Shown here: piece after piece, positions 1,530 to 9,244 of the stretch
Numbering within the stretch: position 1 is the first letter of the stretch
Layout of the letters: every line of letters begins with the position of its first letter
Assembly: GCA_965218095.1 (NCBI GenBank)
Contig: OZ244587.1
Location: forward strand, 2,240,001 to 2,304,000
Direction: 5' to 3'
Source of the DNA: Candidatus Poribacteria bacterium
Lineage (GTDB): Bacteria > Poribacteria > WGA-4E > PCPOR2b
DNA: 64,000 nt
Program-made: the position numbers and the translations under genes
Notes under the pieces: model-generated
Databases searched by the model: none
Seen by the model: only the letters and a program-made list of their open reading frames with translations
Told to the model about the DNA's origin: nothing

Positions 1530-3737
1530 ATGCCAGATATCCGCAAATCACCAGAATATCAACGGTGGAGACAAGAGGTCAAACAGCGCGATGAAAACGC
1601 CTGTCGTGTATGTGGAGTGCAGCGTAATATCCACGTACATCACATCAAACCTTTCAAAAAATACCCTGAATTTGCCACCGAACTGGACAACGGCATCACA
1701 CTCTGCGGAAACTGCCACACTCTTTTTAGAGGTGAAGAAGAAAGCACCAATCTTCAAACGATTATAGAAGCGGTTACCGGTCAACATGATATGCGAACCG
1801 CTGACCAGTTAAATCGGCTCAACGGTAAATTTTGCGCCTATCTGGAACCCCTGTTAAAATCAGGGGATCGATCCAGAAGGAATAACGCGGTTTATCATCT
1901 GTTTGTCCAACTCCAAATTTATCCCGATTCACTTGACCAATTTCTTCCCCTTATTCAACATCTTCTAGATAGTGAAAACGGGTCCGATGAGGGGCTTGCC
2001 AAACAGATAGCAGTCGAATTTCTTAAAGGCAGCTCAAGCGGGGCGGCGTTACAGATGCTTAGCGAATACGAAAGACGGATTGAAGCCGAAAGACAAAGAC
2101 GGGAAGCGGAACTGGAAGAACTAAAGCAATTGCGACTGCTCGCCGAGCAAGGCGATGCCAATGCACAGAATAACCTTGGCGTGAGATATGCGAATGGCAG
2201 GGGTGTTGAGCAGGACGATGGGGAGGCGGTCAAATGGTATCGCAAAGCCGCCAAACAGGGCGATGCCAATGCACAGAATAACCTTGGCTTGAGATATGCG
2301 AATGGCAGGGGTGTTGAGCAGGACGATGAGGAGGCGGTTAAGTGGTATCGCAAAGCCGTCCAACAGGGCAATGCCTATGCACAGAATAACCTTGGCTGGA
2401 TGTATGAAAAAGGCAGGGGCGTTGTTCAAGACGATGAGGAGGCGGTCAAATGGTATCGCAAAGCCGTCCAACAGGGCAATGCCTATGCACAGAATAACCT
2501 TGGCTGGATGTATGAAAAAGGCAGGGGCGTTGTTCAAGACGATGAGGAGGCGGTCAAGTGGTATCGCAAAGCTGCCCAACAGGGTAATGCCAAAGCACAG
2601 AATAACCTTGGCGTGAGGTATGAAAAAGGCAGGGGTGTTGAGCAGGACTATGAGGAGGCGGTTAAGTGGTATCGCAAAGCCGCCGAACAGGGTAATGCCA
2701 CAGCACAGTATAACCTTGGCTGGATGTATGAACATGGCAGGGGTGTTGTTCAGGACGATGGGGAGGCGGTCAAATGGTATCGAAAAGCCGCCAAACAGGG
2801 CGATGCCACAGCACAGAATAACCTTGGCTGGATGTATGAACATGGCAGGGGTGTTGTTCAAGACGATGGGGAGGCGGTCAAATGGTATCGAAAAGCCGCC
2901 AAACAGGGCGATGCCTATGCACAGAATAACCTTGGCTTGAGATATGCGAATGGCAGGGGTGTTGAGCAGGACGATGAGGAGGCGGTTAAGTGGTATCGCA
3001 AAGCCGTCCAACAGGGCAATGCCTATGCACAGAATAACCTTGGCTGGATGTATGAAAAAGGCAGGGGCGTTGTTCAAGACGATGAGGAGGCGGTCAAATG
3101 GTTTCGCAAAGCCGTCCAACAGGGTAATGCCACAGCACAGAATAACCTTGGCTGGATGTATGAAAAAGGCAGGGGCGTTGTTCAAGACGATGAGGAGGCG
3201 GTCAAGTGGTATCGCAAAGCTGCCCAACAGGGTAATGCCAAAGCACAGAATAACCTTGGCGTGAGGTATGAAAAAGGCAGGGGTGTTGAGCAGGACTATG
3301 AGGAGGCGGTTAAGTGGTATCGCAAAGCCGCCGAACAGGGTAATGCCACAGCACAGTATAACCTTGGCTGGATGTATGAACATGGCAGGGGTGTTGTTCA
3401 GGACGATGGGGAGGCAGTCAAATGGTTTCGCAATGCTACCGAACAAGGCGATGCCAATGCCCAGACCTACCTTGGCTGGATGTATGAACATGGCAGGGGT
3501 GTTGAGCAGGACTATGAGGAGGCGGTCAAATGGTATCGCAAAGCCGCCAAACAGGGCTATGCCCTAGCCCAGGAGAACCTTGGCGAGATGTATGACAATG
3601 GCAGGGGTGTTGATTGGGACGATGAGGCGACGGTCAAATGGTTTCGCGAAGCCGCTGAGCAAGGAAATGCCAAAGCCCAGTTCCTCCTTGGCGAGATGTA
3701 TGACAATGGCAGGGGCGGTGTTCAGGTTGAAGGTTAA
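1530..3737 (+). CDS. HNH endonuclease fused to 14 full plus 1 partial Sel1-like repeats
   Basis: N-terminal RDENACRVCG..HVHHIKP..NGITLCGNCH; 36-aa AQNNLGxxYxxGRGVxQDxxEAVKWYRKA repeats; SD gagga before the ATG. Confidence 0.9.
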   Translation: MPDIRKSPEYQRWRQEVKQRDENACRVCGVQRNIHVHHIKPFKKYPEFATELDNGITLCGNCHTLFRGEEESTNLQTIIEAVTGQHDMRTADQLNRLNGKFCAYLEPLLKSGDRSRRNNAVYHLFVQLQIYPDSLDQFLPLIQHLLDSENGSDEGLAKQIAVEFLKGSSSGAALQMLSEYERRIEAERQRREAELEELKQLRLLAEQGDANAQNNLGVRYANGRGVEQDDGEAVKWYRKAAKQGDANAQNNLGLRYANGRGVEQDDEEAVKWYRKAVQQGNAYAQNNLGWMYEKGRGVVQDDEEAVKWYRKAVQQGNAYAQNNLGWMYEKGRGVVQDDEEAVKWYRKAAQQGNAKAQNNLGVRYEKGRGVEQDYEEAVKWYRKAAEQGNATAQYNLGWMYEHGRGVVQDDGEAVKWYRKAAKQGDATAQNNLGWMYEHGRGVVQDDGEAVKWYRKAAKQGDAYAQNNLGLRYANGRGVEQDDEEAVKWYRKAVQQGNAYAQNNLGWMYEKGRGVVQDDEEAVKWFRKAVQQGNATAQNNLGWMYEKGRGVVQDDEEAVKWYRKAAQQGNAKAQNNLGVRYEKGRGVEQDYEEAVKWYRKAAEQGNATAQYNLGWMYEHGRGVVQDDGEAVKWFRNATEQGDANAQTYLGWMYEHGRGVEQDYEEAVKWYRKAAKQGYALAQENLGEMYDNGRGVDWDDEATVKWFREAAEQGNAKAQFLLGEMYDNGRGGVQVEG
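2141..3715 (+). repeat. 108-bp tandem Sel1-coding repeats with a 648-bp higher-order duplication
   Basis: Units 2-6 recur almost identically as units 8-12. Shadow ORFs 2296/2944 and 2620/3268 are offset by 648 bp. Confidence 0.9.
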
Positions 3738-4294: not shown

Positions 4295-6178
4295 ATGAAA
4301 AAGTACTGTTTTTGGACCACCGTAACCCTAATCTTGCTGACCTGCATCATAGTGTCGAATTGCAGCGGCAAAGAAATGGCAGCGACTCCCGATGTCGCTC
4401 CCGATAGCGTTTTGAATGTCATCCCCCAAGACACCGTTGGGGTGATTTACATCCCGAGCTTACTCGGACTCAATGACGAAATTAACGCACTCCTCGCAGA
4501 AATGATTCCTTCAGACCCACCGCAAGAACTGCCCGCTAAGATGTTGGCAGACACTTTTGGTGCGGGTTTTGAGACGCTGGCGGAATTGGAGGAACTGGGC
4601 TTGGATCTGCAGAAAAACTTCGCGGTGTTTCTCTCCGGTGTGAATCCACCCGTGCCTTCTGCCGCTGTTCACGTTAAAGATGTAGAAAGCGTCAAACAGT
4701 TAATCGAAATGGAATCGGAAGGCAGTAGTTCGGTCACCCATAACGGCGTGACATATTACACCACAGGGGAGGGCGGTGCGTTCGTTCTGATGGATGATGT
4801 GATGGTCTATTCAGGTTCAGTGGAGGTCTGCGAAAAAGCCATTGATACCCAGAAGAAGGAGATGCCATCGATTGTCGCCAATACCGATTTCCAATCGCTC
4901 AGGCTCGATACGACATCTGGCCTAAATGATCTGGTTGCTTACTTTGCAATGGATGCCATTGTGGAAGCCTTCCGCCCCATGCTGACTGAGAAATCGGAAA
5001 CATTAAAGGCAGAAATGGAAGAATTAAAGGCAGAAATGGAAGAAATGGAGGCAAGTGCAGAAATGGACCCACAACTCGATGTCGGTTTAGGGTATGTCGG
5101 GAATCTGGTTGACAGCGGTATATGGCTGCTGGAGCAGTCAAAAACCTTGGGCCTTACCGTTCAACTCAACGGCAGCGACTTACAAATTTCTCCATTCCTC
5201 AAATTTAAGCGGGATAGCGAGATTCAACCGTATATTCGCCAGTCACCAATGGAGCTGACACACCTCAAATACCTGCCGCAAAATGCGTTCCTCAATGGCG
5301 AGATGCAATTTCAGAAGGAGATGTTGGTCGATCTCACACACAAAATGATGCAGTTGTTTATCCCTTCGGATCCGAACGCGGATACAGAGGAGATCGAAAA
5401 AGCATCCGAGGCACTTACTGAAGCGACGACAAATTTCTACGGAGGCTTGGGAGATGAGGCCGCTTTTTCCGTCAATTTCAGCGAGAGCCTGATGCCTGAT
5501 ATATTATACGTCTACGATGTGACGGACGAAAAGCAGGTTAAGGCGTACATGGAGAAAGATTTCATCCTATATTTGGGAACCTCAATGGCACTGATCGAAG
5601 CACTGGGAGTGGGTCAGGCATACGCTGGCATGTACGCAGATGCGTCAGCAGGTTCCCCTGAGATATACAATGGTGTGGAGATTAAAAATTTCATTCTGCC
5701 AAATATCGCCGCCCTTTTTGCTCAACTTCCGCCCGAAATGGAAGGCGTCGCTCCAGAACAGTGGAATATCTACTATGCCATCAACGGCGGCAAACTGCTC
5801 TACGGAATAGCGGGTAATGCCCAGCCGATTAAAGACACCCTAGATCGAATGGCGGGTACGGGGGCAGGCTTTGATCAAGGGGAAGGCTACACCAAACTGA
5901 TCGGTGCGTTGACCGTGAAAAACAACATGTTCTTGGCAATTTCACCTATCACAGCGGTCAAAAGTCTCGTACAGATGTTTGCTCAAGCGGATCCGAACGT
6001 CGGCGTGGTCCAGATGCTTTTGATGGACATTCCCGAAACCTACAGCATCGGTATTGCTAGCCAAAATCGGGATGGCGGCGTTGAAGGGAAGCTATTTATC
6101 TCAATCGGCGACTTCAAGGAAATCATCAATAAGGTCGTCGGTATGCAGGGAATGGAGGGAATGGAGAGAATGCAGTGA
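4295..6178 (+). CDS. Exported or lipoprotein hypothetical protein (DUF3352-like)
   Basis: 627-aa ORF with SD aaggag and a signal peptide containing Cys. The family assignment is tentative. Confidence 0.7.
   Translation: MKKYCFWTTVTLILLTCIIVSNCSGKEMAATPDVAPDSVLNVIPQDTVGVIYIPSLLGLNDEINALLAEMIPSDPPQELPAKMLADTFGAGFETLAELEELGLDLQKNFAVFLSGVNPPVPSAAVHVKDVESVKQLIEMESEGSSSVTHNGVTYYTTGEGGAFVLMDDVMVYSGSVEVCEKAIDTQKKEMPSIVANTDFQSLRLDTTSGLNDLVAYFAMDAIVEAFRPMLTEKSETLKAEMEELKAEMEEMEASAEMDPQLDVGLGYVGNLVDSGIWLLEQSKTLGLTVQLNGSDLQISPFLKFKRDSEIQPYIRQSPMELTHLKYLPQNAFLNGEMQFQKEMLVDLTHKMMQLFIPSDPNADTEEIEKASEALTEATTNFYGGLGDEAAFSVNFSESLMPDILYVYDVTDEKQVKAYMEKDFILYLGTSMALIEALGVGQAYAGMYADASAGSPEIYNGVEIKNFILPNIAALFAQLPPEMEGVAPEQWNIYYAINGGKLLYGIAGNAQPIKDTLDRMAGTGAGFDQGEGYTKLIGALTVKNNMFLAISPITAVKSLVQMFAQADPNVGVVQMLLMDIPETYSIGIASQNRDGGVEGKLFISIGDFKEIINKVVGMQGMEGMERMQ
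5002..5043 (+). repeat. 21-bp in-frame tandem duplication (LKAEMEE x2)
   Basis: attaaaggcagaaatggaaga occurs twice in tandem. Confidence 0.9.
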
Positions 6179-6282
6179 TTCGATTGTGGCTTTATGGTGG
6201 GCGGCGTGCAAGATTTATTTCGCCAGGAAAGGCGAGGTGATAAATGTTGCACGCCTCATTCTGATATGAGATTAAGAAGAAA

Positions 6283-6648
6283 CTAATTTAGCGCCTCTGC
6301 GCTGAAACCAGCTTGCTTAACGGCATCGGTCAATTGGGCGGTGGTGGTTTTACCTTTTTCCAACTTGACGATTGCTTTACCATCTGAGAGAGAAACATCG
6401 GCGCTGATTACGCCGGGGACTTTAGTGAGTGCAGACTGCACATTTGCTTGGCAAGCCCCTCACGTCATTCCAGTAACAGCCAACGCGATCTCTTCGACAT
6501 CCGCTGCTGGCGCTTCAGCAGCAGCGGCAGGCTTTTCGGCCGCTTCTTGCGCTGTCTCGGCGGTCTTTTCCATCTTTTTCTCAGAAGCACAGCCAACAAC
6601 GAGAATTAGCGCCATGCAACAGATTAGCGAGAACTTCAGCATACACAT
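6283..6648 (-). CDS. Selenocysteine-containing heavy-metal-associated (HMA; MerP/CopZ-like) lipoprotein, 121 aa, UxxC
   Basis: Reading through the TGA at 6460-6462 gives LAVTGMT-U-GACQANVQSALTKVPGVISADVSLSDGKAIVKLEKGKTTTAQLTDAVKQAGFSAEALN*, a complete HMA fold. Also has a lipobox (LVVG-C), SD aggagg and a consensus promoter. Confidence 0.88.
6429..6441 (-). promoter_or_regulatory. Candidate bacterial SECIS apical hairpin
   Basis: mRNA GUGCA-GUC-UGCAC starts 18 nt after the UGA and resembles the E. coli fdhF SECIS tip UGCAGGUCUGCA. Confidence 0.6.
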
Positions 6649-6690
6649 CTGGTAGACACCTCCTTTTCAGGAAAAATAAAACTGCCTTCT

Positions 6691-6726
6691 ATTATATGTG
6701 ACAGTACAGGTTTTGTCAAATATAAT
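6691..6726. promoter_or_regulatory. Overlapping divergent sigma70 promoters
   Basis: Minus strand TTGACA(6719-6714)-17-TATAAT(6696-6691); plus strand GTGACA(6698-6703)-17-TATAAT(6721-6726). Confidence 0.75.
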
Positions 6727-6799
6727 CTGTAGCAGTGGTAGATTTGTGGTCGCAAGAAAAGTTGATGGAAGTACCGTAAGGAATCAACACCCCAGCCTA

Positions 6800-9244
6800 A
6801 TGATGAAGCGATTTTACTGGATCTTCGCCTTACTCACTGTATTGAGCGTCACGATCTTCAGTGTGAACTCCCAGAGAAATTCCGAGGAAACAATTCCCGC
6901 CCGAGCTCATCAAAACACCCACCCACTTGCCCGAGATGTTCGCGTGATTCCTCCGTCTGCTACAGAGTCAATACCCACAACGCATAAATCCAGAGACTGG
7001 CAGTCCATTATCAAATCCGTCGGCATTGAGTCGGATTCAGAGAAATGTGTCAACTGTCACTTTGAAGGACAACCCCCAACACAGGCGCATCCGGAAAATC
7101 ATCTGAACCTCCATGAACCGGAGACATTCGGCTGTGTCCTTTGTCACGGCGGCAATCCACGGGCAACCGAGAAGCAGGCTGCGCATTCCACCACAGAAAC
7201 GTTGCCGTTCCTGAGCGGACGCCAAATTGAAGCGAGTTGTGGAAAGTGCCATACTGAGCCTGCGGTGCCGGGCGCCCATTCGCTCTCCGGCGGACGATTT
7301 GTGTTGAACAGATATGGCTGTGTGACCTGTCACAACCTGCCGGTAGAAATTCCCATCGCACGGTATGCGCCTCACCTAGACACAATTGGCAATAAAGTCA
7401 CCAGAGAATGGCTGGGGCAGTGGCTTGAAGACCCGACGGTTTATCTTCCAGAATCGAAGATGCCTGAAATCGAGATGACGGAGCGTGAGCGTGAAGCCAT
7501 CATCGAATTTCTCCTGACCTTGCGGGCTGATACGCTCTTCCGACCAATCCCCGGGGAAGGCAATCCCGAAAAAGGGGAAAAGATCTTCGTAGACTTTGAA
7601 TGCCAATCTTGTCATGTGGTACGCGGGGTGGGTGATAAAATCGGTCCTGCGCTTGATCAGGTCGGGACAAAGGTAAACCGCCTATGGCTCATGAACTATC
7701 TCCGCAAACCGGCAGCGTTTCATCCGAATACAAAGATGCCGGATTACGAGTTCCTGAACCAGGAGATCCTGGATGTCACCGAATATTTGCTGCGTAATTT
7801 TTCCGATGGGGCGACCGTTTTAGAAAGATTTCCGGATGATTCCCCCAATCCCACCCAAGCCCATGAGGGGTTTAAGCTCTACATCAGCAAGGGCTGCGCA
7901 CAGTGTCATGGAATCACGAAATACATGCGGGTGAATATCACCGATCAGTTGAAGCAGTGGGATATTGGCGGAGCCGTCGATCGGGTTCAAACGCATCGAG
8001 GAAAGCGAATCGAGGTCCCAGAAATCGACATGCCAGAATCGGACGCCGCATTGATGGAGATCGCTCTTTTAGCGATGCGACAAAATGACATCTATAAAGA
8101 TCTGGTGTACGATTTGGAAGAGGGAACGCTGGGACATACGGAGGGATTTTTAGAGGCATTCTGGCAGTTTCCTGTACCGCTTCAGGGAGAATTACCGGGC
8201 TATTACAATGAAACGAGCTCAAAACTCACCCCAGACTCGTGTGGAAGTTGCCATACCAAACAGTGGGAAGATTGGAAGACAACCCGCCATGCGGTTGCAA
8301 TGGGACCCGGAGTTTGGGGACAGTTAATCGGGCAGAGTCCGGGGTTCGTTGAAAACTGTTCTCAATGCCACGCGCCATTATCTGAACAACACGAATACTT
8401 GCCAACATCAGATGGCGACTACGCCGAAAATCAGCAGTATGACGCACAACTCCAAGCCCATGGGCTTACCTGTGCCGCCTGTCATGTTCGAGGCCATCAA
8501 CGCTTTGGACCTCCTTTCTCAGAAACCGCTGCTGCGGCAAATGTTTTTAGCGAAGGGCATCATGGGGGCGCAGTCGTGAGTCGAGCGTATGAAGATTCAG
8601 CTTTCTGTAAGCCGTGTCATCAATTTGAGGAAGGTGGGTTTAGTCTAAACGGGAAACTCTTGGAAAACACGTACAACGAATGGCTCGAAAGCCCCCATGC
8701 CAGGGATGGGAAAACATGTCAATCGTGTCATATGCCGGACCGCAGGCATCGGTGGCGAGGCATTCATGATCCGGAAACAGTGCGAAAGGCTCTAAAACTG
8801 AACGTCGAGATGAAGAATCAGCAGGAGAACATCGAAGCTGAAATTCGGCTGACAAACGTGGGGGCGGGGCATTACCTGCCGACCTACGTAACACCAGCGA
8901 TTTTTATCACAGTGCGGATGCTGAATTCCGCTGGAAACCCGGCGCCTGATACGGAGCAGGTGCGCGTAATTCAACGGCGAGTTCCCTTGACGCTGGACCG
9001 GGAAGTCTTTGACACCCGCATCCCCGCCGGAGGAACCTGGGCCTATACTTATCGAGCGTCTCGTCCCAAACAGGTAGACATCCTTGAAATCCGCCTTGAT
9101 GTGCATCCGGATCATTTTTACAATGGATTCTTCAAAGAATATCACGTAAACGATTGGAATGCGCAACAGCACATCGACAAAGCCTTTGAGATTACTGAAA
9201 ACAGCCCGTACCTGCTGTTGACCAAACAGATTGCTTTGGAATAA
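6800..9244 (+). CDS. Multiheme cytochrome c (11 CxxCH motifs)
   Basis: CVNCH, CVLCH, CGKCH, CVTCH, CQSCH, CAQCH, CGSCH, CSQCH, CAACH, CKPCH, CQSCH. Signal peptide from MMKRFYW; c554-like module with a C-terminal NVGAGHYLPT. Confidence 0.92.
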   Translation: MMKRFYWIFALLTVLSVTIFSVNSQRNSEETIPARAHQNTHPLARDVRVIPPSATESIPTTHKSRDWQSIIKSVGIESDSEKCVNCHFEGQPPTQAHPENHLNLHEPETFGCVLCHGGNPRATEKQAAHSTTETLPFLSGRQIEASCGKCHTEPAVPGAHSLSGGRFVLNRYGCVTCHNLPVEIPIARYAPHLDTIGNKVTREWLGQWLEDPTVYLPESKMPEIEMTEREREAIIEFLLTLRADTLFRPIPGEGNPEKGEKIFVDFECQSCHVVRGVGDKIGPALDQVGTKVNRLWLMNYLRKPAAFHPNTKMPDYEFLNQEILDVTEYLLRNFSDGATVLERFPDDSPNPTQAHEGFKLYISKGCAQCHGITKYMRVNITDQLKQWDIGGAVDRVQTHRGKRIEVPEIDMPESDAALMEIALLAMRQNDIYKDLVYDLEEGTLGHTEGFLEAFWQFPVPLQGELPGYYNETSSKLTPDSCGSCHTKQWEDWKTTRHAVAMGPGVWGQLIGQSPGFVENCSQCHAPLSEQHEYLPTSDGDYAENQQYDAQLQAHGLTCAACHVRGHQRFGPPFSETAAAANVFSEGHHGGAVVSRAYEDSAFCKPCHQFEEGGFSLNGKLLENTYNEWLESPHARDGKTCQSCHMPDRRHRWRGIHDPETVRKALKLNVEMKNQQENIEAEIRLTNVGAGHYLPTYVTPAIFITVRMLNSAGNPAPDTEQVRVIQRRVPLTLDREVFDTRIPAGGTWAYTYRASRPKQVDILEIRLDVHPDHFYNGFFKEYHVNDWNAQQHIDKAFEITENSPYLLLTKQIALE

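Follow-up and report, generated by a model that had tools for sequence, protein, structure and literature searches.

A probable lipid-anchored HMA-domain selenoprotein, with selenocysteine at its metal-ligand position, conserved across an order of Candidatus Poribacteria

Results

A 64,000-nucleotide (nt) stretch of a Candidatus Poribacteria genome, hereafter the window, carries at 6283..6648 on its minus strand a gene of 121 codons and a TAG stop (6285..6283), in which codon 63 is an in-frame TGA (translated here with TGA as U). On sequence evidence, it is highly likely that this locus is a single selenoprotein gene encoding a lipid-anchored protein with a heavy-metal-associated (HMA) domain, for which a role in soft-metal handling is proposed. 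The selenoprotein reading follows from three observations: the UGA occupies a ligand codon of the HMA domain, the genome has a complete selenocysteine (Sec) machinery, and both the UGA and a downstream hairpin are conserved across the order. Public annotation splits the gene into a meaningless stub of 62 amino acids (aa) and a fragment named CopZ. All coordinates are positions in the window.

An in-frame UGA at the first ligand of an HMA domain

In the open reading frame (ORF) listing, a frame of 62 codons (6648..6460, minus strand) terminates at the TGA (6462..6460), and a second ORF of 52 codons (6441..6283) shares its frame. The stop had been described beforehand as lying exactly where the first Cys of the HMA motif belongs, and the Pfam alignment agrees: the U coincides with the first Cys of the metal-binding motif, and HMA (PF00403) spans the TGA, covering residues 56-115 (profile 2-61 of 62) at 44.7 bits against 24.8 (E 1.8e-11). 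The frame continues past the TGA for 58 sense codons and a stop, which are the 59 codons of the preliminary description, and completes the HMA fold. The read-through protein, with TGA as U, has 121 residues, contains the segment ...EEIALAVTGMT-U-GACQANVQSAL... and ends in ...FSAEALN. Codon 63 (6460..6462, minus strand), if read as Sec, would provide the first ligand of a U-x-x-C motif whose Cys is residue 66 (codon 6453..6451).

The protein can be divided into three parts. The N-terminus, MCMLKFSLICCMALILVVGC, is a lipoprotein signal peptide (residues 1-20; 6589..6648, minus strand) with the lipobox L-V-V-G-C and the codon of Cys20 at 6591..6589. A lipobox is the end of a signal peptide in the pattern [LVI..][..][GAS]-C, and all 40 distinct orthologues and paralogues have a hydrophobic stretch ahead of a [GAS]-C whose Cys falls within residues 18-27; Cys20 is invariant among the 26 orthologues of alignment A3. 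Of the processing enzymes of bacterial lipoproteins, the genome encodes LspA (122 bits against a cut-off of 74) and an Lgt-like protein that spans the full profile but scores below the cut-off (91.5 against 118.9 bits). The signal peptide is followed by a disordered linker in which Ala, Glu, Pro and Thr abound (residues 21-50; 6499..6588, minus strand), which differs in sequence and length between orthologues, and then by the HMA domain (residues 51-121; 6286..6498, minus strand).

An AlphaFold2 model built on the A3 orthologues shows a signal helix (residues 6-18), a low-confidence linker (predicted local distance difference test, pLDDT, below 50 at residues 19-45) and a confident domain (residues 51-120, pLDDT ~95). 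The domain has the beta-alpha-beta-beta-alpha-beta order of the HMA fold, with strands at 51-59, 80-86, 91-97 and 116-120 and helices at 64-75 and 103-112, and residue 63 is flanked by strand 1 and helix 1. Foldseek matched the model to HMA proteins only, the top match being MerP of Ralstonia (PDB 1osd; target template modelling score 0.93, root-mean-square deviation 1.2 A), with ATPase metal-binding domains and CopZ further down. A sequence profile search of the PDB gave, among single-domain chains, MerP 1afi (70.4 bits) and 1osd (69.0 bits) and CopZ 6ff2 (63 bits).

Conservation of the UGA codon

When 61 genomes from the order were searched in six frames, every one gave a match (61/61). Within the window's family, the best match contains exactly one in-frame TGA in 28/28 genomes, and the orthologues are colinear over residues 2-121, again with exactly one TGA each. 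In an alignment of 35 distinct genes from four families (A2; 34 Sec forms and one Cys form), 34 carry the TGA at the G-[MLV]-T-U-x-x-C column. The remaining gene, L083 of genome G031, has TGC at this column; its sequence, GMTCGACVAKVQGAL, is otherwise near that of the Sec-form orthologue of a sister genome, GMTUGACVAKVQDAL. The in-frame UGA is thereby aligned with Cys codons of homologues, namely the TGC of L083 and the TGC or TGT of tandem paralogues.

The pattern extends to a phylum-wide sample, in which 120 of 151 genomes had a match at E <= 1e-14 (25/25, 10/10, 79/100, 4/4 and 1/1 by family, and 0/10 in four other families). Among the full-length small frames listed from this sample, each has one TGA except the TGC orthologue. 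A public protein collection also holds three relatives of near full length with C at the site and three with W, probably a TGA that the gene caller translated as Trp. Furthermore, differences past the TGA among 14 same-family genes number 843, 537 and 1753 at codon positions 1, 2 and 3, respectively; because they concentrate at third positions, the sequence past the TGA is, by its substitution pattern, evolving as coding DNA.

The lipoprotein gene is often tandemly duplicated in three other families (L083-L101). In one genus, the first tandem copy is a Sec form in L085 and a Cys form in L083, and the second copy is a Cys form in both. In several orthologues of one family, TGA serves both as the Sec codon and as the real stop of the same gene.

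A conserved hairpin downstream of the UGA

Bacterial selenocysteine insertion sequence (SECIS) elements are stem-loops that lie shortly downstream of the UGA and carry a G in the apical loop. The hairpin that had been pointed out 18 nt past the UGA was found at 6429..6441 (minus strand; read as 6441..6429) with the sequence GUGCA-GUC-UGCAC. It occupies +22..+34, and its loop G is invariant, although the fold of the single sequence is not significant.

Comparison between genes shows that the helix is conserved. Over the 35 aligned rows, four of the stem pairs are nearly constant (G-C 34 and G-U 1; U-A 34 and U-G 1; G-C 35; C-G 35), and the closing pair is A-U in 22, G-C in 10, G-U in two and unpaired in one, the TGC orthologue. 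Covariation at this closing pair tracks amino-acid change, CAG...NNT giving A-U, CGG...NNC giving G-C and CGG...TCT giving G-U. The stem also includes three synonymous sites, the third bases of a Val codon, of an Ala codon and of the codon between them. The Val codon is GTG in 35/35 aligned genes and the Ala codon GCA in 34/35, the exception being a GCG that still pairs as U-G; across the genome, GTG makes up ~29% of Val codons and GCA ~24% of Ala codons (long ORFs, a rough stop-to-stop estimate). The covariation score and the percentage paired were reached by 0/500 shuffles, sliding the 3' partners lowered pairing from 93.5% to 20-54%, and RNAalifold predicts the same helix.

The hairpin also distinguishes Sec forms from Cys forms. 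All five pairs are intact in 52 of 54 distinct Sec-form HMA domains, the other two keeping four, and in 0/10 Cys-form domains, of which six keep four pairs and four keep three. This contrast represents few evolutionary events, the rows being related and seven of the ten Cys forms coming from one genus and one protein family, which weakens it as support. The comparison combines the lipoprotein family with a cytochrome c-WD40-HMA family (described below); two non-HMA matches to the search expression (AVACS...) were dropped, and L110, L111 and L118, which did not match it, are uncounted.

The core GTGC[AG]G..[TC]GCAC occurs eight times in the genome, and only in the HMA gene does it stand behind an in-frame TGA in an open frame. 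With one of eight occurrences in such a position, a shared genomic motif built on this core was ruled out.

The selenocysteine machinery

The genome is a single 6.35 Mb contig, 93.9% complete with 2.4% contamination, and the four components whose presence would decide whether Sec can be made and inserted are all encoded in it, each above its curated cut-off. They are a tRNA-Sec (Rfam RF01852, 76.6 bits against 47; ARAGORN tRNA-SeC, anticodon UCA), selB, which lies directly ahead of the tRNA gene (353.7 bits against 242), selA (605.7 against 268) and selD (371 against 125).

Two further selenoprotein genes were noticed in the same genome. The first is selD itself (G000:C1:5447425-5448348, minus strand), which has one in-frame TGA and a strong hairpin from ~10 nt past it; this hairpin differs from that of the HMA gene and is nearer its own UGA. 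The second is another lipoprotein-type HMA paralogue at about G000:C1:3336210-3336569 (+), with the lipobox LFSC and the site GIA-U-GGC. Its hairpin is related, has six base pairs in the stem and AGUUA as the loop, and is equally far from the TGA; the real stop of this gene is a TGA.

Sequencing support, public annotation and the case for a true stop

One DNA run, possibly the source of the assembly, covers 5900-7100 without a difference. Contigs from three sponge metatranscriptome libraries of one study cover 6163-6611, 6225-6611 and 6239-6561; they bridge the TGA and extend beyond the TAG stop, and none differs at 6460-6462. At the site where a Cys codon might have appeared, independent DNA and RNA-library contigs alike have TGA. 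No RNA-library contig lies over 6612-7100, and depth is higher over the gene than over adjacent sequence, contig ends and depth being unusable for transcript ends or expression level. We treat these contigs as supporting evidence for transcription and not as proof of it.

Standard annotation misses the gene, as the preliminary description had anticipated. The public protein collection holds the 62-aa stub for the window's genome and, for relatives, 18 clusters of C-terminal fragments of 43-53 aa that start at the GTG inside the hairpin. One of these fragments is named 'heavy metal-associated domain-containing protein' by NCBI (in a Poribacteria metagenome-assembled genome), and several bear the name 'copper chaperone CopZ' from the Joint Genome Institute (JGI).

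Such stubs, of 62 aa here and of 48-53 aa in relatives, are what standard gene callers report, and together with the non-significant single-sequence fold they speak for a TGA that is a true stop, in a gene that is broken or split or in an assembly that is wrong, with a 62-residue lipopeptide or nothing as its product. We consider this extremely improbable. The ligand-column TGA is in frame in 28/28 same-family genomes and throughout the order, it is present in four independent runs, constraint at the protein level persists past it, and the hairpin is maintained by synonymous choices as well as covariation. In the AlphaFold2 model, moreover, a 62-residue product would hold strand 1 of the fold only. 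Close orthologues keep TGA and not TGY, with a conserved and covarying hairpin, and the recurrence of the same column and the same hairpin in relatives shows that their coincidence here is beyond chance.

Several points nevertheless count against the selenoprotein interpretation. The protein is known here from DNA and RNA-library sequence alone, and RNA libraries can contain DNA. The single-sequence fold (71 nt) has a z of -1.31, with 25 of 200 shuffles folding equally well, and an Rfam scan of 6200-6750 at E up to 10 returned three chance-level matches and no SECIS family. The loop is conserved only as G-N-N, the base after the G varying (T, G or A), unlike the GU of Escherichia coli fdhF, and the spacer between UGA and hairpin is 4-5 nt longer than that of fdhF or of selD in this genome. 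Because the fold of the single sequence is not significant and Rfam gives no match, the case for the hairpin rests on comparison.

Expression signals and genomic neighbourhood

The promoter and Shine-Dalgarno sequence of the preliminary description were recovered along with its lipobox. A sigma-70-type promoter, TTGACA-17 nt-TATAAT, lies at 6691..6719 (minus strand) and matches the consensus at 12/12 positions, and a Shine-Dalgarno sequence read directly from the DNA, AGGAGG, lies at 6659..6664 (minus strand), 10 nt ahead of the ATG. A promoter match of at least 11/12 within 130 nt upstream was found at 19/20 same-family orthologue loci and at 28/40 orthologue and paralogue genes overall, the second gene of tandem pairs mostly being without one; GGAGG-type sites precede most orthologues.

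The divergent neighbour (6698-9244, plus strand) encodes a multihaem cytochrome c of 848 aa with FixO/cbb3-like and MtrC/MtrF-like stretches, and its real start probably lies around 6800. This cytochrome gene is faced by another promoter-like site, GTGACA-17-TATAAT (11/12; 6698-6726, plus strand). Because the site overlaps the selenoprotein promoter on the opposite strand, both genes may be controlled from a single region in which their divergent signals overlap. The convergent neighbour (4295-6178, plus strand) encodes a 627-aa protein that belongs to no Pfam family and has 62-78% identity to its counterparts in relatives. Among the loci of 14 relatives, the cytochrome c neighbour is kept in 5/14 and the 627-aa neighbour in 10/14, and neither indicates function.

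Farther along the window, at 1530-3737 (plus strand), lies a gene whose 735-aa product carries an HNH endonuclease motif at its N-terminus and, after it, 14 Sel1 repeats.

The HMA domain also occurs in a second architecture. In relatives (L102:535-2256 and L103:474-2276, both plus strand), a protein of ~580 aa combines a PSCyt1 planctomycete-type cytochrome c, a WD40 propeller and a C-terminal HMA domain. Its site is GMT-C-GAC in the window's family and GMT-U-GxC, with an intact hairpin, in the order's other families. No copy was matched in the window's own genome at E <= 1e-8 with the HMA query.

Discussion

The proposed mechanism begins with SelB and Sec-tRNA(Sec), which would bind the hairpin at +22..+34 on the translating mRNA so that UGA63 is decoded as selenocysteine. 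The precursor would leave the cytoplasm unfolded, and Lgt and LspA would lipid-modify it at Cys20. The flexible Ala/Glu-rich linker of ~30 residues would then tether the protein to the membrane, facing the periplasm, and the ferredoxin-like HMA domain would hold a soft metal ion between the Sec63 selenolate and the Cys66 thiolate.

The metal (Hg, Cu or Ag) and the role (chaperone or scavenger) named in the preliminary description are putative. Function is where the proposal meets its other counterarguments: next to the gene, a multihaem cytochrome c and a protein of no Pfam family were seen, not metal transporters or regulators, and the scores against all named NCBIfam families fall short of their curated cut-offs. 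No metal-handling genes were seen near the gene, MerT was unmatched and the MerA-model match fell below its cut-off. The gene is single-copy, core to the order and chromosomal, has a strong near-consensus promoter and lies outside mer, cop and resistance operons; for these reasons, housekeeping handling or buffering of soft metal outside the cytoplasm is more probable than classical mercury resistance, and Cu(I) is the most likely bound metal.

The main alternative accepts the selenoprotein and changes its chemistry, making U-x-x-C a redox centre that would form and resolve a selenenyl-sulfide instead of a metal site. Its substrate in the periplasm, reduced by it or supplied with electrons through it, might for example be a disulfide or the oxyanion of a metal or metalloid. 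Most bacterial UxxC selenoproteins in the table of a 2026 review, as far as the excerpt available shows, are redox proteins (PMC13188914). Electron transfer is also hinted at by the presence of the HMA-plus-hairpin module at the C-terminus of the ~580-aa PSCyt1-WD40 protein and by the multihaem cytochrome c next door. That cytochrome neighbour, however, is kept in just 5/14 loci of the family, the fold is ferredoxin-like HMA and not thioredoxin-like, and the nearest solved relatives (MerP, CopZ and ATPase domains) are all metal binders. We therefore judge a redox centre unlikely.

A second alternative, that the protein is MerP proper, the periplasmic Hg(II)-binding part of a mer system that passes Hg(II) to MerT and MerA, appears very improbable. 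It draws on structure and chemistry: MerP 1afi and 1osd are among the top single-domain sequence matches in the PDB, the best fold match is 1osd, and selenolate is established to bind Hg(II) with high affinity. A selenoprotein survey of the Global Ocean Sampling (GOS) data also has, in the part available, a 'MerP' row (PMC2398784). Against this stand a score of 54.4 bits for TIGR02052, below the cut-off of 92.55, no match to MerT (PF02411) in the genome, and a best MerA-model match of 400 bits, below 454. There are no mer genes among the window ORFs scanned, and the gene is core to the order and not sporadic. The Poribacteria protein is moreover lipid-anchored, whereas MerP of Gram-negative bacteria is soluble.

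With soft-metal handling as the preferred reading, a broader one can be entertained as speculation, and we think it rather unlikely. The HMA-Sec module with its own hairpin has at least three architectures, occurring as two lipoprotein paralogues, as tandem copies and within the cytochrome c-WD40-HMA protein. It could form a selenium-based system, strongly expressed and present throughout the lineage, by which sponge-symbiont Poribacteria capture soft metals, or pass electrons to them, outside the cytoplasm. If so, the selenium supply of the symbiont would be tied to how the sponge holobiont tolerates metals or to its redox chemistry of metals.

Whatever its function, the gene gives Candidatus Poribacteria one more selenoprotein family, well supported and found across the order. 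It offers a natural Sec/Cys comparison at a metal-ligand position, near-identical orthologues carrying U or C, and the decay of the recoding hairpin in Cys forms makes it a convenient system for asking what selenium buys an extracytoplasmic metal site.

Comparison with known systems

That Sec occurs in HMA-type metal sites is already known from NCBIfam and from selenoproteome surveys. The GOS survey lists, in the portion available, a selenoprotein 'Mercuric transport protein MerP' with two sequences and no motif given (PMC2398784), the excerpted table of the 2026 review has entries for the UxxU metal-binding protein of NF041115, for a cation-transporting ATPase whose motif is UxxC and for a MerT-like transporter (PMC13188914), and the accessible text of a 2022 preprint mentions MerT-family selenoproteins. 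For sponge-symbiont bins, a 2017 paper describes an enrichment of selA and selB. The Poribacteria family itself seems undescribed: no paper on a Poribacteria HMA selenoprotein family was found in a literature search that did not extend to the supplements of selenoprotein database papers, and the main texts of the BSepDB and deep-Sep papers do not mention HMA, copper or mercury, although their supplements may list such families.

Among named families, the best NCBIfam match is CopZ_AFE_1862 (NF047957; 68.9 bits against a cut-off of 85), followed by the UxxU metal-binding (seleno)protein NF041115 (65.0 against 95), MerP TIGR02052 (scores as above), CopZ NF033795 (53.0 against 91) and the MerT/CopZ fusion selenoprotein NF045683 (29.8 against 375). 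The NF041115 family ('UxxU_metal_bind') resembles the Poribacteria protein in being a small HMA-type protein with Sec in the metal-binding motif, and it aligns with residues 50-120 (profile 2-72 of 74). Membership was rejected on the score and on the motif, which is U-G-A-C with TGC at the second position and thus contains one Sec; the Poribacteria protein also adds a lipoprotein signal and a linker of ~30 residues. The cation-transporting ATPase shares a UxxC Sec motif within a metal-transporting family (PMC13188914) but is a large membrane pump. Long frames (774-865 aa) that matched the HMA query in the Poribacteria searched contain no TGA and are putative ATPases.

CopZ-type copper chaperones (PDB 6ff2 and 1cpz) have the same fold and motif. 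CopZ is cytoplasmic and has no signal peptide; an assignment to cytoplasmic CopZ was rejected, the scores lying below both the NF047957 and NF033795 cut-offs and a lipoprotein signal peptide being present. The Poribacteria protein differs from CopZ in its lipobox signal peptide and in the Sec that replaces the first Cys. MerP (PDB 1afi and 1osd) is likewise an extracytoplasmic single HMA domain with GMT-C/U-x-x-C and gives the best fold match. Assignment to a mer-operon MerP was also rejected, on the TIGR02052 score and on the lack of a MerT match, of a MerA-model match above the cut-off and of a mer operon; the Poribacteria protein differs from MerP in being lipid-anchored on a tether.

Finally, the hairpin can be set beside the SECIS element of fdhF in E. 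coli K-12 (NC_000913.3), to whose tip it had been called nearly identical. This holds for the apical stem, whose letters both elements share (UGCA...UGCAC), and for a loop that opens with G. It does not hold for the loop length or the spacing: the fdhF tip reads TGCAGGTCTGCAC from offset 18, and the Poribacteria hairpin reads TGCAGTCTGCAC from offset 23, with a loop one G shorter (GUC against GGUC) and no evident bulged U.

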